From Escherichia phage BA14: DNA of 39,816 bases. The notes below the pieces were generated by a model. The model saw only the letters and a list, made by a program, of their open reading frames with translations. It did not search any database and was not told the origin of the DNA. A program made the position numbers and the translations under genes. The stretch is from the sequence record NC_011040.1. One strand, given 5' to 3'. How positions within the stretch are numbered: the first letter of the stretch is position 1; every line of letters begins with the position of its first letter. Positions 5,668 to 37,212 of this stretch are shown piece by piece.

Positions 5668-5727
5668 CCCTTGGGGTTTCCCTACTTTAAGATAACTTTA
5701 AGTTTAACTTTAAGAGGAAACATAATC

Positions 5728-6285
5728 ATGTTTACTTTCATCACTTCAGTAGGCGCTCTCGTATCAACCATTCTTGCAGCAACATACTATAATCGTTCAA
5801 AGGTATTTCTCACTAAGCTAATCAAAGAAGAGAAGAACTCTCATGCACTCAAAGAGAGACTTGAAGATGGATGGCGAGAGAAGCAGGAACTAGCTGGTCG
5901 AATCCGTACCTTAGAGTTCGAACAACAATATGACATGTCGAACCAACGAGAACTCATTGAGCGTCTACGTGCTGAGGCAGTGGAGTACCGCAAGGAACTT
6001 AAAGAAGCCAAGAAGATTATCCGTGAGTATACACACAGTGACATCACGTCTATCAAGTTTACTGCTCACATCCCGGATGCTGGATGGAAGCGCACTGAGT
6101 TCAAGCTGGGTCTTGGCTCGTGTGGTAAGCAAGTCACATGTCTACATTGGGTTGAACAAGCCGACCGCTATCTGCTGACACAGACGTGCACTGACGGTGA
6201 GCGCAAAGAGTTCACCTACTATAAGAAAGATGTAGCGGGTCGCATTGAGATTGCACGTAAGGTTGCAGACAATACGACTCACTAA
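5728..6285 (+). CDS. Hypothetical membrane-anchored coiled-coil protein (gene 1.05 position)
   Basis: 185 aa from ATG 5728 preceded by AGAGGAAAC RBS and a TTAACTTTA epsilon-like motif; N-terminal TM helix, charged heptad-rich middle, Cys-containing C-terminus; sits between gene 1 and gene 1.1. Confidence 0.7.
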   Translation: MFTFITSVGALVSTILAATYYNRSKVFLTKLIKEEKNSHALKERLEDGWREKQELAGRIRTLEFEQQYDMSNQRELIERLRAEAVEYRKELKEAKKIIREYTHSDITSIKFTAHIPDAGWKRTEFKLGLGSCGKQVTCLHWVEQADRYLLTQTCTDGERKEFTYYKKDVAGRIEIARKVADNTTH

Positions 6286-14072: not shown

Positions 14073-14101
14073 TAAATAAACACACAGAAGGAGATACTAC
14101 C

Positions 14102-14536
14102 GTGCATAAGTCTACTAAGATTCAGACGGTTGAATCCTTACTGTCTCGCACGGTTAGTGTTGAGGGCTGCTTGGAGTGGACAGGTTCCACAAGAGGTGGT
14201 TATGGTAGGGTGACAACTCAAGGAAAAGGATGGACAGTCATACGTTTAATTTGGACTCTTCAACACGGAGAGATACCAGAAGGTAACGTTGTACGCCACA
14301 CCTGCGACAACCCTAAGTGCTGCAACCCTGAACACCTTGTTGTAGGTACTCAAGGCGACAACATGCAGGATAGGTTTAACAGAGGGCGCTACTCGCTATT
14401 TCCACTGCCAAGTATGGTGGAAGCTCTTATCTCGCGTGGAATATCCCAAGCAAGTATTGCTGGATTCTTCTGCGTTAACCAAGGCCACATCTCTCGCATC
14501 CATCGTGGGGAGTATCGAGGTGCAAAGTGCTGTTAA
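14102..14536 (+). CDS. HNH homing endonuclease
   Basis: 144 aa from GTG 14102 (RBS GAAGGAGA 7 nt upstream); HNH signature RHTCDNPKCCNPEHLVVGTQGDNMQD. Confidence 0.85.
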   Translation: MHKSTKIQTVESLLSRTVSVEGCLEWTGSTRGGYGRVTTQGKGWTVIRLIWTLQHGEIPEGNVVRHTCDNPKCCNPEHLVVGTQGDNMQDRFNRGRYSLFPLPSMVEALISRGISQASIAGFFCVNQGHISRIHRGEYRGAKCC

Positions 14537-16641
14537 GTGATATTGAAACAAATGGTCTATTACACAATGTCTCGCAGTTTCACTGTGCGGTGACTTACGA
14601 CTACACAACTGACCAGTACATCCGTTATCGACCTGATGACTTTGGGGCGTACATTGATGCACTCGAAGCCGAGGTTGCTCGTGGTGGTCTCATTGTGTTC
14701 CATAATGGTCACAAGTATGACATCCCGGTAATCGAGTTGCTCGCCAAGAAACTGTTAGGCCGTGACGTTAAGTTCCCGAAAGAGAACGTACTGGATACCC
14801 TCGTGATGTCCCGCTTGATTTACTCTAACATCAAAGACACCGATGCTGGTCTGCTTCGTGCTGGCAAGCTGCCGGGTAAACGCTTTGGTTCCCACGCTCT
14901 GGAGGCTTGGGGCTATCGCTTAGGCGAAATGAAGGGTGAGTACAAGGACGACTTCAAGGCTTCACTGGCTGAGTCTGGTGAAGAATACGTTGATGGGATG
15001 GAGTGGTTGCTGTTCAACGAAGACATGATGGAATATAACGTTCAAGACGTTGTAGTAACCAAGGCTCTCTTCGAGAAACTTTGTAGCAACACATTCTATT
15101 TCCCTAACGAGACACCTGCTGGAAGCACAGAAGCAGAACGTTTCTGGAATGGTAGCCTTGAGGCTGTCAAACTGGAACACGATGCTGCATGGTTGTTAGC
15201 CAAGATGGAACGTAACGGTTTCCCTATTGACATCAAGTCCTTAGAGAATCTCTACGCTGAACTGGCTGGTCGCCGTGGTGAACTGCTGGTCGAACTGACC
15301 AACACTTTCGGTACGTGGTATCAGGCCAAGGGTGGCGTAGAAGCATTCCGTCACCCACGAACTGGTAAGCCTCTCACTAAGTATCCTCGTGTGAAGTATC
15401 CGAAACAGGGTGGCATCTTCAAGAAGCCGAAGAACAAGAAGCAACGTGAAGGTCTGGAACCCTGTGAACTGGACACTCGTGATTACGTAGAGGGCGCACC
15501 TTACACGCCTGTAGAGCACGTTGTGTTTAACCCTGCTAGTCGTGACCACATCACTCGTGTGCTTACCAAAGCTGGCTGGGTGCCCGTTGAGTTCACTCCT
15601 AGTGGTGCACCAAAGGTAGACGATGAAGTCTTAGAGCACGTTAAGGTAGACGACCCTGATGCACAGCGTTGCATTGAGTTGATTAAAGAATACCTTATGA
15701 TTCAGAAACGTATCGGTCAGGTTGCTGAAGGTGATAACGGCTGGCTCCGAATGATTGGAGAAGATGGTCGTATTCACGGTAGCGTTAACCCGAACGGTGC
15801 GGTAACTGGACGTGCAACTCATAGCTTCCCTAACGTGGCACAGGTGCCTTCTATCCGTGCTGCTTATGGTGAACCTTGCCGTGCTGCTTTCGGTGCCGAG
15901 CACAACATGAAAGACGGTAAGCCAGACCCTTGGATTCAAGTTGGTGTGGATGCGTCCGGCCTTGAGCTACGTTGCTTGGGTCACTTCATGTATCGTTATG
16001 ATGAAGGCGAGTACGTTGAGACAATCCTAACGGGTGACATCCATACGAAGAACCAGATGGCTGCGGGTCTACCGACTCGTGACAACGCCAAGACGTTTAT
16101 CTATGGATTCCTCTATGGTGCTGGTGCTGCGAAGATTGGACAGATTGTTGGTGGTACTGCCGAAGATGGTAAGCGACTCATCAAGAACTTCCTTGAGCAA
16201 ACTCCGGCTATCGCTGCGTTACGTGAAGCAATCACAGGGACACTCGTCAAGGACTCCAAGTGGGTTGGCGGCGAACAGAAAGTAACTTGGAAGCGCCGTT
16301 GGGTTCGTGGCTTGGATGGTCGTAAAGTCCACGTCCGTAGTCCTCACGCTGCGTTGAACACCTTGTTGCAGTCTGCTGGTGCACTTATTTGTAAACTGTG
16401 GATTGTCGAGACTGAACGTCTGTTACTGGAAGCTGGCCTGAAGCATGGCTGGGATGGTGACTTTGCATACATGGCTTGGGTACACGATGAAATTCAGGTC
16501 GCTGCAAGGACTCAAGAGATTGCCGATAAGATTGTCGAGTTGGCACAGCAAGCAATGCGTAATGTGGGAGACCACTTTAATTTTAGATGTCAGTTAGATA
16601 CCGAAGGTAAGACTGGCGCAAACTGGAAAGATTGTCACTAA
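14527..16641 (+). CDS. 5: DNA polymerase with 3'-5' exonuclease (gp5)
   Basis: 704 aa; N-terminal exo motif LLSDIETNG, thioredoxin-binding region, and polymerase motifs (YGFLYGAG, VHDEIQV) collinear with T7 gp5; apparent GTG start overlapping the HNH stop. Confidence 0.97.
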   Translation: MLLSDIETNGLLHNVSQFHCAVTYDYTTDQYIRYRPDDFGAYIDALEAEVARGGLIVFHNGHKYDIPVIELLAKKLLGRDVKFPKENVLDTLVMSRLIYSNIKDTDAGLLRAGKLPGKRFGSHALEAWGYRLGEMKGEYKDDFKASLAESGEEYVDGMEWLLFNEDMMEYNVQDVVVTKALFEKLCSNTFYFPNETPAGSTEAERFWNGSLEAVKLEHDAAWLLAKMERNGFPIDIKSLENLYAELAGRRGELLVELTNTFGTWYQAKGGVEAFRHPRTGKPLTKYPRVKYPKQGGIFKKPKNKKQREGLEPCELDTRDYVEGAPYTPVEHVVFNPASRDHITRVLTKAGWVPVEFTPSGAPKVDDEVLEHVKVDDPDAQRCIELIKEYLMIQKRIGQVAEGDNGWLRMIGEDGRIHGSVNPNGAVTGRATHSFPNVAQVPSIRAAYGEPCRAAFGAEHNMKDGKPDPWIQVGVDASGLELRCLGHFMYRYDEGEYVETILTGDIHTKNQMAAGLPTRDNAKTFIYGFLYGAGAAKIGQIVGGTAEDGKRLIKNFLEQTPAIAALREAITGTLVKDSKWVGGEQKVTWKRRWVRGLDGRKVHVRSPHAALNTLLQSAGALICKLWIVETERLLLEAGLKHGWDGDFAYMAWVHDEIQVAARTQEIADKIVELAQQAMRNVGDHFNFRCQLDTEGKTGANWKDCH

Positions 16642-16950: not shown

Positions 16951-17159
16951 TGGGTGATTATCTACGTGTACTGGCGGCTATCAAAAGCTGCCCTAAGACC
17001 TTTCAGTCGAACTATGTGCGCAACAATGCGTCACTGGTGGCTGAGGCTGCAAGCCGTGGTCATATCTCTTGCCTATCAACTGATGGGCGTAATGCTGGCG
17101 CTTGGGAAGTAACAGGTGCTGGTGTCCGCTTCTTGACTAAGATGGGAGGTTGTGTATGA
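16950..17159 (+). CDS. 5.7: gp5.7
   Basis: 69 aa; AIKSCPKTFQSNYVRNNASLVAEAASRGHISC near-identical to T7 gp5.7 as I recall it. Confidence 0.85.
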   Translation: MGDYLRVLAAIKSCPKTFQSNYVRNNASLVAEAASRGHISCLSTDGRNAGAWEVTGAGVRFLTKMGGCV

Positions 17160-18070
17160 GCGCCATTACACTGAAGGAGTTCTATGAGTTACGCCAAGGC
17201 AAATCAGACAATGGTGTCTTGGTCATGGATGGTGACTGGCTGGTATTCCAAGCGATGGCAGCAAGTGAAGTAGAGACCGATTGGGGTGATGATGTGTGGA
17301 CATTAGAGTGCGACCACGGGAAAGCGTGGAACATTCTGGTTGACTCTATCAAGTCCTATGCGAGCCGTAAGAAGGCTTGGCGTGATGCACCTATCGTACT
17401 GGCCTTCACTGACGCTGTGAACTGGCGTAAGGAACTGGTGGACCCAACCTATAAGGAGAACCGTAAGGCATCCCGTAAGCCTGTAGGCTACCGTGCGTTC
17501 GTCGAGCGTGTTCAAGCCTGTGAGGACTGGACGTCTATCCTTGAGCCTCGCTTAGAGGGTGATGATGTAATGGGAATCATCGGGTCTGGTGCTAAACACT
17601 TTGGCTTCAAGAAGGCTGTGTTGGTCTCCTGTGATAAGGACTTTAAGACCATCCCTGATTGTGACTTCTTGTGGTGTACCACTGGTAACATCTTGACTCA
17701 AGACCAGACTACTGCTGACTACTGGCACATCTATCAGACCATCAAAGGTGACTTGACAGATGGCTACGGTGGCATTCCGGGCTGGGGCGAGACTACCGCT
17801 GAGTGGCTGGAGAACCCATACGCCTTTGAACAGGTTGAGAAAACTTTCAAGTCTGGTGCCCGTAAGGGACAGACAGTTCTCGAATGGAAGAAGGTGGACA
17901 TGGGAGACCGAACCTTGTGGGAAGCGATTGTGACCCTTGGTGCCAAAGCTGGGATGACCGAAGAGGAAATCATTAAGCAAGGCCAGATGGCTCGCATCCT
18001 TCGTTTCGAAGAGTACAACTTTATCGACAAGGAGATTTACCTATGGTCGCCGGAACAGTTGCGTTCGTAA
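17156..18070 (+). CDS. 6: 5'-3' exonuclease (gp6)
   Basis: 304 aa from ATG 17156 (RBS GGGAGGT); blocks VMDGDWLVFQAM, CDKDFKTIPDCDFLWCTTGNILTQ and QMARILRFEEYNFIDKEIYLW match T7 gp6. Confidence 0.95.
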   Translation: MSAITLKEFYELRQGKSDNGVLVMDGDWLVFQAMAASEVETDWGDDVWTLECDHGKAWNILVDSIKSYASRKKAWRDAPIVLAFTDAVNWRKELVDPTYKENRKASRKPVGYRAFVERVQACEDWTSILEPRLEGDDVMGIIGSGAKHFGFKKAVLVSCDKDFKTIPDCDFLWCTTGNILTQDQTTADYWHIYQTIKGDLTDGYGGIPGWGETTAEWLENPYAFEQVEKTFKSGARKGQTVLEWKKVDMGDRTLWEAIVTLGAKAGMTEEEIIKQGQMARILRFEEYNFIDKEIYLWSPEQLRS

Positions 18071-18129
18071 TGTTCGCAATCGTAGCCTTCGCTATGGTGT
18101 GGGCTGCATTTATAGCTAAGAGTGTGTAA
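18070..18129 (+). CDS. Possible 19-aa hydrophobic peptide (gene 6.3 position)
   Basis: ATG overlaps the gene 6 stop (TAATG); MFAIVAFAMVWAAFIAKSV; very short, weak support. Confidence 0.25.
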   Translation: MFAIVAFAMVWAAFIAKSV

Positions 18130-18157
18130 CTCTAGGCATTCTTCTCGACAGTGAAAT

Positions 18158-18180
18158 TAATACGACTCACTATTGAGAGG
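18158..18180 (+). promoter_or_regulatory. Phage RNAP promoter TAATACGACTCACTATTGAGAGG (phi6.5-like)
   Basis: Full T7-family match through -1; initiating GAGAGG. Confidence 0.8.
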
Positions 18181-18232
18181 GGTGCCTATATGATACCTAC
18201 TTTAAGTTCTAACTTTAAGGAGAACATTAATT

Positions 18233-18478
18233 ATGTTAACCCCTATCAAGAAGTATATGGAGAACCCACAAGATATTCCTAATGTTCCTCGGAGTGTTAT
18301 GGAGTATCTACAGGTTCAATACAATGCTGGATATGCTATTCAGTCAGGTCTAATCAACCGATTGAAACAGGCTGGATGGTCTGAAAGCTACATTGCCGGG
18401 TTCCTTGCTGGTCTCAACTATGCGTCCCAAACTCTGGATGACATGGAGGCAATCCGTAAGGAACAGGCTGAGTCCTAG
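18233..18478 (+). CDS. gp6.5-like protein
   Basis: 81-aa ORF with RBS TAAGGAGA after the 18158 promoter. Confidence 0.7.
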   Translation: MLTPIKKYMENPQDIPNVPRSVMEYLQVQYNAGYAIQSGLINRLKQAGWSESYIAGFLAGLNYASQTLDDMEAIRKEQAES

Positions 18479-18493
18479 TGTTATGGAGGTCTT

Positions 18494-18766
18494 ATGTGCT
18501 TTTCACCAAAGATTAAGACACCTAAAGTAAAGACTGAATCCATCCGAGCTATCGACCCTGCTCCACTGACTGAGGAACCGAAAGGTATTCTCTTTGGTGG
18601 CGAAGAGGACAACGATAGCGGAACCTCTTCTGAGGTGCCAACGGGCGGCAAGAAGTCCCTGAAGGTGAAACTGGATGACTCCGTTGAGAAATCCAAGAAG
18701 GCAGACTCCGCTGCTGCCAAGAAGTCCAAGTCTGGTATCCGTACCAGTGTCTTTAAGAAGAAATAA
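18494..18766 (+). CDS. 6.7: gp6.7 virion protein
   Basis: 90 aa; N-terminus MCFSPKIKTPK and lysine-rich C-terminus resemble T7 gp6.7. Confidence 0.8.
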   Translation: MCFSPKIKTPKVKTESIRAIDPAPLTEEPKGILFGGEEDNDSGTSSEVPTGGKKSLKVKLDDSVEKSKKADSAAAKKSKSGIRTSVFKKK

Positions 18767-18780
18767 TTAGGAGGTTTATC

Positions 18781-19128
18781 ATGGGTTGGGGTAAAAAGAT
18801 TCGTAAGGCAGTCAAGAAGACTGTCAAGAAAGTAACTAAGCCTATCGAGAAGGTAGTCAAGGAAACTGGCAAGGTAGTCGAGAAGGTCGGTAAGGAAGCT
18901 GGTAAAGTCGTTGGTGGCGTTGCTGGTGCACTTGCTGGTGGTAAGCCTGATGTACAGGTAGTTGAACAAGCTGCTCCTGTAGCTGCACAGATTATCGAGC
19001 CACCGAGTAAAGACGATGTGGACACCGATGATGATGCACAGACTGAATCTGGCAAGAAGAAAGCCCGTGCTGGTGGTAAGAAATCCCTGAGTGTCGCTCG
19101 TAGTTCTGGCGGTGGTCTTAATATCTAA
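18781..19128 (+). CDS. 7.3: gp7.3 tail/adsorption protein
   Basis: 115 aa; C-terminus AQTESGKKKARAGGKKSLSVARSSGGGLNI matches T7 gp7.3 as I recall it. Confidence 0.85.
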   Translation: MGWGKKIRKAVKKTVKKVTKPIEKVVKETGKVVEKVGKEAGKVVGGVAGALAGGKPDVQVVEQAAPVAAQIIEPPSKDDVDTDDDAQTESGKKKARAGGKKSLSVARSSGGGLNI

Positions 19129-19142
19129 CAAGGAGGCGCTAA

Positions 19143-20750
19143 ATGGCAAGCTCACAGAAACGTGAAGGCTTCGCTGAGAATGGTGCCAAGGCGGTGTATG
19201 ACGCATTGAAGAACGACCGGAACTCCTATGAGACCCGTGCGGAAAACTGTGCGAAGTACACCATCCCCTCGTTGTTCCCGAAGGACTCCGATAACGCCTC
19301 TACTGACTACACGACTCCGTGGCAAGCAGTGGGCGCTCGTGGTCTGAACAACTTGGCCTCTAAGCTCATGCTTGCTCTGTTCCCTATGCAGACTTGGATG
19401 AAGCTGACCATCTCTGAGTTCGAAGCGAAACAATTGGTAGCACAACCCGCTGAACTGGCGAAGGTCGAAGAAGGTCTCTCTATGGTCGAGCGAATCTTGA
19501 TGAACTACATCGAGTCAAACTCATACCGTGTGACACTCTTTGAGACCCTCAAGCAGTTGGTCGTAGCTGGTAACGCTCTGCTGTACATTCCTGAACCTGA
19601 AGGTACTTACAATCCCATGAAGTTATACCGTCTGTCTTCTTATGTTGTCCAACGAGACGCATTCGGCACGGTACTACAGATTGTGACCTTGGATAAGACT
19701 GCCTATGCAGCACTTCCAGAAGACGTAAGGAACTCTATGGACTCCGGTCAGGAACATAAGGGTGACGAGATGATTGATGTGTACACTCACATTTATCTCG
19801 ATGAGGAATCTGGAGAGTACCTGAAGTACGAAGAGATTGATGGCGTTGAAGTCGAAGGCACAGATGCTTCTTATCCGGTGGACGCTTGTCCGTATATCCC
19901 GGTTCGCATGGTGCGCATTGATGGAGAGTCATATGGTCGTTCGTACTGTGAGGAATACTTAGGTGACTTACGTTCACTTGAGAACCTTCAGGAAGCAATC
20001 GTCAAGATGTCCATGATTAGTGCAAAGGTTATCGGCTTGGTTAACCCTGCTGGTATCACACAGGTTCGTCGCTTAACGAAAGCACAAACAGGTGACTTTG
20101 TGTCTGGTCGTCCAGAAGACATCTCGTTCCTTCAGTTGGAAAAGGCTGCTGACTTCTCTGTAGCGAAAGCTGTAAGTGAACAGATTGAAGGCCGACTGTC
20201 CTATGCCTTTATGTTGAACTCTGCGGTACAGCGTACTGGTGAGCGTGTGACAGCCGAAGAGATTCGTTATGTTGCATCTGAACTGGAAGATACCCTTGGT
20301 GGTGTCTATTCAATTCTCTCACAGGAACTTCAGTTACCTATGGTTCGTGTCCTACTGAAACAACTTCAAGCAACCAATCAGATTCCTGAGTTACCGAAAG
20401 AGGCCGTTGAGCCTACTATCAGTACCGGGATGGAAGCATTGGGTCGTGGTCAAGACCTCGATAAGCTGGAACGATGTATTGCTGCATGGTCTGCTCTTGC
20501 TCCTATGCAGAATGACCCGGACATCAACATTGCGACCATTAAGTTGCGCATTGCGAACGCTATCGGCATCGACACTTCTGGTATCCTTAAGACACCTGAA
20601 GAGAAGCAACAGGAAATGGCTGAGTCCGCTCAAGGCACTGCTCTGGAGAACGCTGCTGCGTCTGCTGGTGCTGGTGCTGGTGCACTGGCTACTGCAAGTC
20701 CTGAGAACATGGAAGCTGCTGCTGCACAGGCTGGTATGGTTCCTAATTAA
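19143..20750 (+). CDS. 8: Portal (head-tail connector) protein gp8
   Basis: 535 aa; long collinear identity with T7 gp8 (e.g. YTIPSLFPKDSDNASTDY.TPWQAVGARGLNNLASKLMLALFPMQTWM). Confidence 0.97.
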   Translation: MASSQKREGFAENGAKAVYDALKNDRNSYETRAENCAKYTIPSLFPKDSDNASTDYTTPWQAVGARGLNNLASKLMLALFPMQTWMKLTISEFEAKQLVAQPAELAKVEEGLSMVERILMNYIESNSYRVTLFETLKQLVVAGNALLYIPEPEGTYNPMKLYRLSSYVVQRDAFGTVLQIVTLDKTAYAALPEDVRNSMDSGQEHKGDEMIDVYTHIYLDEESGEYLKYEEIDGVEVEGTDASYPVDACPYIPVRMVRIDGESYGRSYCEEYLGDLRSLENLQEAIVKMSMISAKVIGLVNPAGITQVRRLTKAQTGDFVSGRPEDISFLQLEKAADFSVAKAVSEQIEGRLSYAFMLNSAVQRTGERVTAEEIRYVASELEDTLGGVYSILSQELQLPMVRVLLKQLQATNQIPELPKEAVEPTISTGMEALGRGQDLDKLERCIAAWSALAPMQNDPDINIATIKLRIANAIGIDTSGILKTPEEKQQEMAESAQGTALENAAASAGAGAGALATASPENMEAAAAQAGMVPN

Positions 20751-20770
20751 TACGACTCACTAATGGGAGA
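20748..20770 (+). promoter_or_regulatory. Phage RNAP promoter TAATACGACTCACTAATGGGAGA (phi9-like)
   Basis: 23-bp T7-family promoter overlapping the portal stop codon. Confidence 0.85.
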
Positions 20771-20824
20771 GACACTACGTCCTCCCTTTGAGTTCTAAAC
20801 TTTTATTATCAAAGGAGATACAAT

Positions 20825-21736
20825 ATGTCCGGTGAATCTAATGCTGATGTTTACGCATCTTTCGGTGTGAACTCTGCGGTTGTCGGTGGGTCTACTCCTA
20901 CTGACCACGAACAGGCTATGCTTGAACTCGATGTTGCTGCCCGTGATGGTGATGATGCAATCGAGTTAGTTGGCAATGATGACCCTTATGGTAATCCAGA
21001 CCCGTTTGGTGAAGAAGACGAGAATCGTACTGAGATTCGTATCTCCACTGATGGTGAACCTGAAGAGACCGAAGAGGGTGAGATTGATTACTCCGAAGGC
21101 GACGAAGAAGGTTCCGAAGAGTTTGAACCTGTGGGTGACGTTCCAGACGAACTGAATGAAGCCTCAAGTCAACTCGAAGAGCATGAAGCTGGCTTCGAAG
21201 AGATGGTCAATCAGGCTGCTGAACGTGGTCTGTCCGAAGAAACTATCGTCCGTATCCAACAGGAATATGGTGAAGATGGTCTGTCCGAAGAGTCCTATGA
21301 AGAACTGGCTAAGGCTGGCTACTCTAAGTCCTTCGTTGACTCCTACATTCGTGGACAGGAAGCACTGGTCGAACAGTACGTTCAGTCTGTTATGGAGTAT
21401 GCTGGTGGTGAAGCACAGTTCCAAGCAATCTACAATCACCTCGAAGTGTCCAACCCGGATGCTGCCGAGTCTCTGGTTAGTGCTCTGGAAAATCGTGACC
21501 TTGCGACCGTTAAGGCTATCGTGAATCTCGCTGGTGCAAGCCGTGCGAAGACTTTCGGTAAACCTGCTGCCCGTAGCATTTCTAAACGTGCCGTACCTGC
21601 TGCACCTGTACGAGCCAAACAGTCTGGCTTTGAGTCACAGGCTGAGATGATTGCTGCAATGTCTGACCCTCGCTACCGTTCGGACTCTAAGTTCCGTGCT
21701 GAAGTTGAGCGTAAGATGATGTACAGTAACTTCTAA
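20825..21736 (+). CDS. 9: Capsid assembly (scaffolding) protein gp9
   Basis: 303 aa, very acidic, RBS AAGGAGA; position between portal and capsid genes. Confidence 0.9.
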   Translation: MSGESNADVYASFGVNSAVVGGSTPTDHEQAMLELDVAARDGDDAIELVGNDDPYGNPDPFGEEDENRTEIRISTDGEPEETEEGEIDYSEGDEEGSEEFEPVGDVPDELNEASSQLEEHEAGFEEMVNQAAERGLSEETIVRIQQEYGEDGLSEESYEELAKAGYSKSFVDSYIRGQEALVEQYVQSVMEYAGGEAQFQAIYNHLEVSNPDAAESLVSALENRDLATVKAIVNLAGASRAKTFGKPAARSISKRAVPAAPVRAKQSGFESQAEMIAAMSDPRYRSDSKFRAEVERKMMYSNF

Positions 21737-36654: not shown

Positions 36655-37212
36655 ATGGCTACTACAAACTCAAGAACCCGCACACTCTGGACCATCAATG
36701 GTCGCTCACCAGACAGTCGTGATGTGTATGACCACAACAATATTGGCCTTCGTGTTGGGCGTATCGACATCCCAGCTTCGGAGATGGTTAAGGTTGAGGG
36801 CTACTCTAAGGTTGAATACATTATCCAACTGAGTGATGGCACCACTGAGCAACATGCTACGTTCGAGACCCTTATGTCCACTTGGGGTGGCTCCGTCGAG
36901 TCTAAACCGGGTAGCGGGTTCATGACGGTGTTCCTGAATGAGCAAAGCACTGAGCGACTCGGTATGGTTCGAATCGACGTATACAAAGAGTGGACTGGTG
37001 CTGACCCTGAACCTGAAGGTGGTAGGGCTTCCTTAGTTAGTGCAACGCTTTCTGCGTCTGATAGTGCATTTGGTACACAGTTCGTGGATAGCGAAGGGAA
37101 GAGTGCTTCCGTTATGTTCCAACCTAGTGACATCGACGGGGCTGTATCTAAGACCGACACTATCAAGGCTCTTGAGAAGCGCATCGCTGACTTAGAGAAA
37201 GCTGCCAAGTAA
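36655..37212 (+). CDS. Hypothetical late protein, unplaced between spanins and large terminase
   Basis: 185-aa ORF with strong RBS GAAGGAGA; starts 2 nt after the Rz stop; no TM segment; C-terminal amphipathic stretch TIKALEKRIADLEKAAK. Confidence 0.7.
   Translation: MATTNSRTRTLWTINGRSPDSRDVYDHNNIGLRVGRIDIPASEMVKVEGYSKVEYIIQLSDGTTEQHATFETLMSTWGGSVESKPGSGFMTVFLNEQSTERLGMVRIDVYKEWTGADPEPEGGRASLVSATLSASDSAFGTQFVDSEGKSASVMFQPSDIDGAVSKTDTIKALEKRIADLEKAAK

Follow-up and report, generated by a model that had tools for sequence, protein, structure and literature searches.

Late-gene order 6.7-7.3-8 in Escherichia phage BA14 and the probable accessory character of T7 genes 7 and 7.7

In the late region of Escherichia phage BA14 (NC_011040.1), the DNA of 39,816 nucleotides that was analysed here in full and is referred to as the window, gene 6.7 is followed directly by gene 7.3 and gene 7.3 by the portal gene 8, with neither gene 7 nor gene 7.7 at the places in which phage T7 carries them. 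It is very probable that this interval is an ordinary late-gene block of the T3/Berlinvirus type and that genes 7 and 7.7 of T7 are accessory. According to the explanation proposed here, gene 7, which is non-essential, predicted to adopt a GNAT fold and patchily distributed, lies within a mosaic segment that runs from the 3' part of gene 6.7 to the 5' part of gene 7.3. In the window both T7 slots are empty, and a single HNH endonuclease gene of the gp7.7 family occupies another site, directly upstream of the DNA polymerase gene. The layout itself is already known, being the standard annotation in T3 and in most of the Berlinviruses sequenced, and it therefore adds nothing to the picture of virion composition. 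In practice it serves as a correction to gene mapping based on T7, which is unsuitable as a default gene map for T7-family phages because its genes 7 and 7.7 are, on this reading, accessory; otherwise the finding matters little. Its by-products are a site-specific HNH lineage that is inserted before the polymerase gene and adjoins a recoded flank, and the predicted acetyltransferase-like fold of T7 gp7.

Gene order and junctions

The interval and its phage promoters comprise the following features:

18159..18178, + strand: phage RNA-polymerase promoter, equivalent of phi6.5, exact match to the consensus
18233..18478, + strand: gene 6.5, 81 amino acids (PF10911, T7-like gene 6.5, E 1.1e-42; 51% identity to T7 gp6.5)
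18494..18766, + strand: gene 6.7, 90 amino acids (PF17570, E 1.9e-26; phrog_1391)
18767..18780, + strand: 14-nucleotide spacer, empty gene 7 slot, TTAGGAGGTTTATC, Shine-Dalgarno sequence only
18781..19128, + strand: gene 7.3, 115 amino acids (PF11653, E 9.1e-27; phrog_1320)
19129..19142, + strand: 14-nucleotide spacer, empty gene 7.7 slot, CAAGGAGGCGCTAA, Shine-Dalgarno sequence only
19143..20750, + strand: gene 8, portal (head-to-tail connector), 535 amino acids (PF12236, E 1.5e-105; phrog_449, E 7.7e-220)
20749..20768, + strand: phage promoter at the end of gene 8, equivalent of phi9, two mismatches to the consensus

The coordinates given by the original prediction, with gene 6.7 ending at 18766, gene 7.3 at 18781-19128 and the portal gene starting at 19143, agree exactly with the open reading frame list and with the raw sequence, and its account of T7 is likewise accurate, in that genes 6.7 and 7.3 of T7 are separated by gene 7, and its genes 7.3 and 8 by gene 7.7, which encodes an HNH endonuclease. 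Homologs of gp6.7, gp7.3 and the portal protein follow one another in order on one strand with Pfam scores well above the gathering cut-offs, and the portal shares 80% identity with T7 gp8. Where the window has the spacer 19129-19142, T7 has a 393-nucleotide HNH gene. Each of the two spacers carries a GGAGG ribosome-binding site and, being only 14 nucleotides long with nothing but this Shine-Dalgarno sequence, neither can accommodate a gene. Chance is not at issue for this layout, because the claim concerns the presence or absence of annotated genes.

The absence of genes 7 and 7.7 had originally been described with T7 as the standard, and a synteny comparison reverses this perspective: T3 has the same 6.7-7.3-8 order, and it is T7, not this phage, that is the exception. 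With nothing between the genes, this order is found in T3, 285P, PYPS50, PYps49T, FE44 and a metagenome contig of 40 kb (L013). In T3 (Teetrevirus), the order 6.5-6.7-7.3-8 is the same as in the window, without gene 7 or 7.7, and, as here, gene 6.5 is preceded by a phage promoter and a second one is located where gene 8 ends, while amino acid identity to the window amounts to 49-54% for gp6.5, gp6.7 and gp7.3 and to 82% for gp8. The Berlinviruses 285P, PYPS50/PYps49T, FE44 and Kvp1, which share 91-97% nucleotide identity with the window over positions 17000-21000, have annotated genes 6.5, 6.7, 7.3 and 8 with the same short spacers; their gp6.7 is 98-99% and their gp8 99% identical to those of the window, gp6.7 comprising 91 amino acids in these phages versus 90 in the window as a result of short indels. 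In T7 (Teseptimavirus), homologous genes 6.5, 6.7, 7.3 and 8 are arranged in the same order, but gene 7 (133 amino acids, predicted GNAT fold) and gene 7.7 (130 amino acids, HNH) are located at junctions that are empty in the window.

An assembly or sequencing artefact, by which genes 7 and 7.7 would have been collapsed out of the sequence, can for practical purposes be dismissed. Nothing was found in its favour, both junctions are intact with their stop codon, ribosome-binding site and start codon, they are identical base for base in independently sequenced relatives, and the genome, at 39,816 bp, has a usual size for the genus, whose records range from 39.3 to 40.8 kb.

Expression signals

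A scan with a phage promoter consensus derived from an annotated promoter of FE44 identified 11 sites in the window, compared with 0.02 expected by chance. The site at 20749-20768 sits where promoters are annotated in FE44 and T3, and the scan found no phage promoter between this site and the one at 18159-18178. Genes 6.5, 6.7, 7.3 and 8 would form one transcription unit driven by the phi6.5 phage promoter. Scans for sigma-70 promoters and terminators around the locus gave counts that were not above those in shuffled sequence, and no host-type regulation is claimed for this reason.

An antisense open reading frame of 241 amino acids (18481-19206, minus strand) was considered as a hidden gene and rejected as an artefact of sense-strand codon composition. 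At this locus the stop-free antisense stretch measures only 130 amino acids in 285P and 208 in PYPS50, and shuffling the codons of genes 6.7 and 7.3 left a stretch of at least 241 amino acids in 929 of 2000 trials (46%). The sole Pfam match of this frame is below cut-off, and the fact that the genes of the T7 family all lie on one strand also counts against it; the frame is a by-product of sense codons rich in lysine, glutamate and glycine.

Absence of gene 7, its distribution and a mosaic segment

The claim that gene 7 is absent holds genome-wide. The best tblastn match of T7 gp7 in the window has an E value of 0.44, with nothing at E ≤1e-3, and a gp7 profile (phrog_2746 family) built from the four sequences of T7, A7, P694 and AP10 and run with filters off against every stop-to-stop segment in all six frames gave a best E value of 0.76. 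For gene 7.7 the same claim stands at the T7 slot but not for the family, since the search for homologs elsewhere in the genome, negative for gp7, found an HNH paralog at 14102-14536, which the original prediction overlooked although it had itself named such a homolog as evidence against its claim. A relocated gp7 analog was also considered among the open reading frames without a T7 counterpart and rejected, as no GNAT or related domain is found among them.

Gene 7 is present, on the other hand, in some phages with the same block. In the Berlinviruses A7 and P694, which belong to the same genus as BA14, and in Apdecimavirus AP10, it sits exactly between 6.7 and 7.3 and encodes 128 amino acids that are about 46% identical to T7 gp7. 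The DNA alignment demonstrates that the window, A7 and P694 are colinear through the stop codon of gene 6.7 and TAGGAGG, after which A7 and P694 have a gene 7 of 387 nucleotides, whereas the window, 285P and PYPS50 have the start codon of gene 7.3. When the window is compared with A7/P694, gp6.5 shows 93-100% and gp8 98-99% protein identity, but the values are lower for gp6.7 (82-84%) and gp7.3 (67-69%), with the divergence in the C-terminal part of gp6.7 and the N-terminal part of gp7.3. This dip relative to gp6.5 and gp8 places gene 7 within a mosaic segment, extending from the 3' part of gene 6.7 to the 5' part of gene 7.3, which on sequence comparison appears to be exchanged as a module.

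It could also be considered that a recent deletion, confined to this phage or the lineage nearest to it, removed gene 7 and affected host range, although this is regarded as unlikely. Such an event would fit with the presence of gene 7 at the exact junction in A7 and P694 of the same genus, with the clean, gene-sized nature of the indel, and with the label 'host range and adsorption protein' that PHROG and RefSeq give to gp7. However, the junction without gene 7 is shared by 285P, FE44, PYPS50, PYps49T, Kvp1 and others, from varied hosts and countries, as well as by T3 and contig L013, and its occurrence in so many independent relatives indicates that the absence is not specific to this phage. 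Moreover, the flanking 3' sequence of gene 6.7 and 5' sequence of gene 7.3 differ between genomes with and without gene 7, pointing to the exchange of a whole module more than to a simple deletion, and the six-frame profile search detected no remnant of gene 7.

An ordinary T3/Berlinvirus-type block with genes 7 and 7.7 as T7 accessories is the preferred interpretation, and no observation contradicts the layout. In a collection of 50,697 phage records, homologs of gp6.7 were found in 1144 and those of gp7 in 206, the latter mostly from T7 itself and in 177 cases with a minimum of 90% identity to T7 gp7; these figures count records rather than independent lineages and are inflated by laboratory variants of T7 and by RefSeq/GenBank duplicates. 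For gene 7 a patchy distribution and a mosaic pattern are seen, and its absence here may be ancestral or due to loss. It is from the positions of the promoters that the 6.5-6.7-7.3-8 block appears to be co-transcribed, and from the 14-nucleotide GGAGG spacers that genes 6.7, 7.3 and 8 are probably linked in translation.

Predicted fold of gp7

T7 gene 7 (2131-2532 of the T7 sequence L001, 133 amino acids) is annotated only as 'host range'. The gene is described as non-essential and as accepting large substitution libraries (bioRxiv 10.64898/2026.06.25.734514, 2026 preprint), and with regard to the classical phenotype of gene 7 mutants the literature searched yields only this non-essentiality, the original descriptions being outside its reach. 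An AlphaFold2 model of T7 gp7, obtained from a four-sequence alignment, reached moderate confidence (pLDDT 78.7, pTM 0.71) and matched 107 PDB chains at E ≤0.001 in a fold comparison, the top 50 PDB matches being without exception GNAT N-acetyltransferases with query-normalised TM-scores of 0.55-0.67. At the level of sequence, T7 gp7 has no Pfam match and the gp7 profile found nothing significant among PDB sequences, while A7 gp7 gives a sub-threshold Pfam GNAT hint (E 0.11); the canonical acetyl-CoA motif is not evident in the model. It is predicted that gp7 resembles a GNAT acetyltransferase at the fold level only, and the model points to an accessory, enzyme-like role more than to a place in the virion. 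No earlier report of a GNAT fold in gp7 was found in the literature searched.

A more speculative proposal, to which very little probability is attached, is that gp7 is a GNAT-fold enzyme that modifies the lysine-rich gp6.7 and gp7.3 or another adsorption component, and that phages without gene 7, such as this one, carry a co-adapted 6.7(3')-7.3(5') module for which the modification is unnecessary. It is based on the moderate-confidence predicted fold, the adjacency of the genes and the mosaic pattern. If true, such a modification would explain why the proteins beside the slot diverge to 82-84% and 67-69% identity as against 93-100% for gp6.5 and gp8, a pattern that is explained equally well by recombination linkage.

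gp6.7 and gp7.3 as virion proteins

Gene 6.7 encodes a small internal protein of the virion/core that is ejected when the phage infects, and the gene 7.3 product is a lysine-rich tail-channel/assembly protein. In the T7 virion as resolved by cryo-electron microscopy in 2024, gp6.7 is present in 12 copies on the portal/core and gp7.3 in 6 copies at the adaptor-nozzle junction (PMC11784390). The N-terminal MCFSPKIKTPK of gp6.7 in the window is conserved with T7 residues 2-15, and the C-terminal ...AQTESGKKKARAGGKKSLSVARSSGGGLNI of gp7.3 with T7 residues 84-98, the KK pair included; both stretches are resolved in the T7 virion and are those that contact portal, nozzle and DNA there. Because these contact segments are conserved, gp6.7 and gp7.3, which are real virion proteins, look intact. 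The original prediction had concluded that the virion therefore lacks gp7, which presupposes that gp7 is structural; this premise finds no support, as gp7 is non-essential, is predicted to have a GNAT fold and goes unmentioned in the available sections of the cryo-electron microscopy account of the virion (PMC11784390).

Within Berlinvirus, gp7.3 is far more variable in its lysine-rich N-terminal half than in its C-terminal 30 residues. Its length is 115 amino acids here versus 122 in 285P, PYPS50 and FE44 and 118 in PYps49T, a difference made up of short indels in the glycine-rich and alanine/proline-rich middle of the protein (for example, a missing APAPAA).

An HNH endonuclease gene upstream of gene 5

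The member of the gp7.7 family found in the window, together with the adjoining part of the polymerase gene, is located as follows:

14102..14536, + strand: free-standing HNH endonuclease gene, 144 amino acids, between genes 4.7 and 5, with a 10-nucleotide overlap with the start of gene 5
14527..14586, + strand: recoded 5' end of gene 5 (DNA polymerase), adjoining the HNH insertion

Among T7 proteins, gp7.7 is the best tblastn match of this open reading frame (40% identity over 121 amino acids, E 2.7e-21). The two share the HNH_3 domain (PF13392, E 2.4e-13 in the window) and an alignable C-terminal region, and the frame also matches PF05551 (E 2.1e-06). Such similarity would be consistent with the relocation rather than the loss of gene 7.7, the HNH gene then being its true ortholog at a new site, but this alternative is highly doubtful. 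T7 gp2.8 matches almost as well (37%, E 6e-20, tblastn), which argues for a paralog and not a relocated ortholog. Furthermore, the genes for all close relatives of the HNH protein (67-96% identity), whether in Klebsiella Przondovirus, Berlinvirus-like or other T7-like genomes, directly precede a polymerase gene, while true gp7.7 orthologs (at least 95%) are limited to T7 and the phages closest to it; this fixed site and this confinement identify the HNH gene as a separate, site-specific lineage of the family. Positional orthology with gene 7.7 is also lacking, since only 14 nucleotides separate 7.3 from 8 and the HNH gene is flanked by 4.7 and 5.

Gene 7.7 is best regarded, in keeping with the accessory status proposed for it, as one copy of a mobile family of HNH homing endonucleases that occupies varied intergenic sites in T7-like phages. 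At no less than 95% identity, gp7.7 is found in 108 of the 50,697 records, followed by a match of 51% in the same slot of phage 13a; the remaining matches are paralogs of 37-50% identity beside genes for polymerase, ligase, endonuclease I, gp16 or 7.3, some of them in unrelated phages. Genes 2.8, 3.8 and 7.7 of T7 have been treated as homing endonuclease genes, and their triple deletion is viable (bioRxiv 10.1101/2025.09.07.674715).

Relative to close relatives the HNH gene is a sporadic insertion, as expected for a free-standing mobile endonuclease gene. It amounts to about 442 nucleotides of insertion with respect to PYps49T, which has a 12-nucleotide spacer at this point; 285P, PYPS50/PYps49T, FE44 and Kvp1 are all without an HNH gene upstream of gene 5, and the insert is covered by none of 93 related phage records. 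The relatives at 67-96% identity always immediately precede a DNA polymerase gene, the start of which they overlap. They include proteins of 67-70% identity in Klebsiella Przondovirus phages, one of 86% in the 40-kb contig L013, which is a metagenome phage contig, and one of 96% in a short Berlinvirus-like metagenome contig (L015); among isolate phages no relative exceeds 70% amino acid identity, so that those of 86-96% occur in metagenome contigs only. In Przondovirus (e.g. IME205) the protein has the same length as in the window, and its gene likewise lies immediately upstream of the polymerase gene and overlaps the GTG start of the latter, although genus and host are different and the flanking polymerase sequence is divergent.

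The adjoining end of gene 5 has a distinct composition. Its first 60 nucleotides contain 21 differences from PYps49T, all of which are synonymous and leave the peptide identical, whereas the next 60 nucleotides contain 0 differences and the 120 nucleotides after those contain 5. A GTG polymerase start and TTAAGTGAYATTGAAAC are common to all genomes with this HNH gene, while HNH-free genomes have ATGTTACTATCCGACATCGAAAC in place of TTAAGTGAYATTGAAAC. This recoding would fit with an endonuclease target at the 4.7/5 junction and a resistant, co-converted flank in the carriers, and the HNH gene together with the flank of gene 5 (14085-14586) resembles a homing-endonuclease cassette whose flank would confer target immunity or reflect co-conversion. 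Homing by the HNH protein is putative, the indirect evidence being its constant place before polymerase genes in several genera and the cluster of synonymous changes in the adjoining 60 nucleotides of gene 5.

In Salmonella phage RN5i1, also a Berlinvirus, an unrelated EndoVII-type nuclease gene is located at the same 4.7/5 junction (787-1224 of the sequence L012), and nucleotides 31-60 of the recoded tract are also found in this phage. It is suggested that mobile nuclease genes insert repeatedly at the 4.7/5 junction.

Genome context and other variable sites

Judged by its sequence, the window comprises the complete genome of a member of Berlinvirus (Autographiviridae, Studiervirinae). It is colinear with T7 over its whole length, and 42 of the 56 T7 proteins, all of which were queried by tblastn, were matched; those unmatched in the window are 0.3-0.6, 1.1, 1.4, 1.5, 3.8, 4.1, 5.3, 5.9, 6.3 and 7. 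In the 4-kb region around the locus, nucleotide identity is 93-97% to the Berlinviruses PYps49T/PYPS50 (Yersinia phages), FE44 (an Erwinia phage) and P483, S523 and 285P (Escherichia phages). The open reading frames without a T7 counterpart consist of a T3-type S-adenosylmethionine lyase, gene 1.05, gene 1.1 and unassigned small frames, the first two being located in the early region:

1050-1508: T3-type S-adenosylmethionine lyase (PF23780, E 7.8e-44)
5671-6285: homolog of T3 gene 1.05 (PF25755)

The early region thus holds the lyase and gene 1.05 in place of the T7 ocr gene (0.3). Both accessory genes are shared with T3, and because they are among the frames without a T7 counterpart, the accessory repertoire of this phage is nearer to that of T3 than to that of T7.

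At 17150-17160 of the window gene 5.7 abuts gene 6, and gene 5.9, which encodes a RecBCD inhibitor, is missing from this place. Elsewhere this slot contains 5.9 in PYPS50, PYps49T and P694 and a 7.7-like HNH gene in FE44, while 285P is without 5.9; the 5.7/6 junction is another variable accessory slot. T3 has annotated genes 5.9 and 6.3, for which no homolog was detected in the window. A strongly hydrophobic open reading frame of 28 amino acids (18043-18129) overlaps gene 6 at its end, where T7 and T3 have gene 6.3, and although no sequence similarity to T7 gp6.3 was detected, it may be a positional analog of gene 6.3. Between genes 18.5 and 19 lies an open reading frame of 185 amino acids (36655-37212) with no Pfam match and no T7 counterpart, and PYps49T has an annotated hypothetical gene in the equivalent 18.5-19 position.

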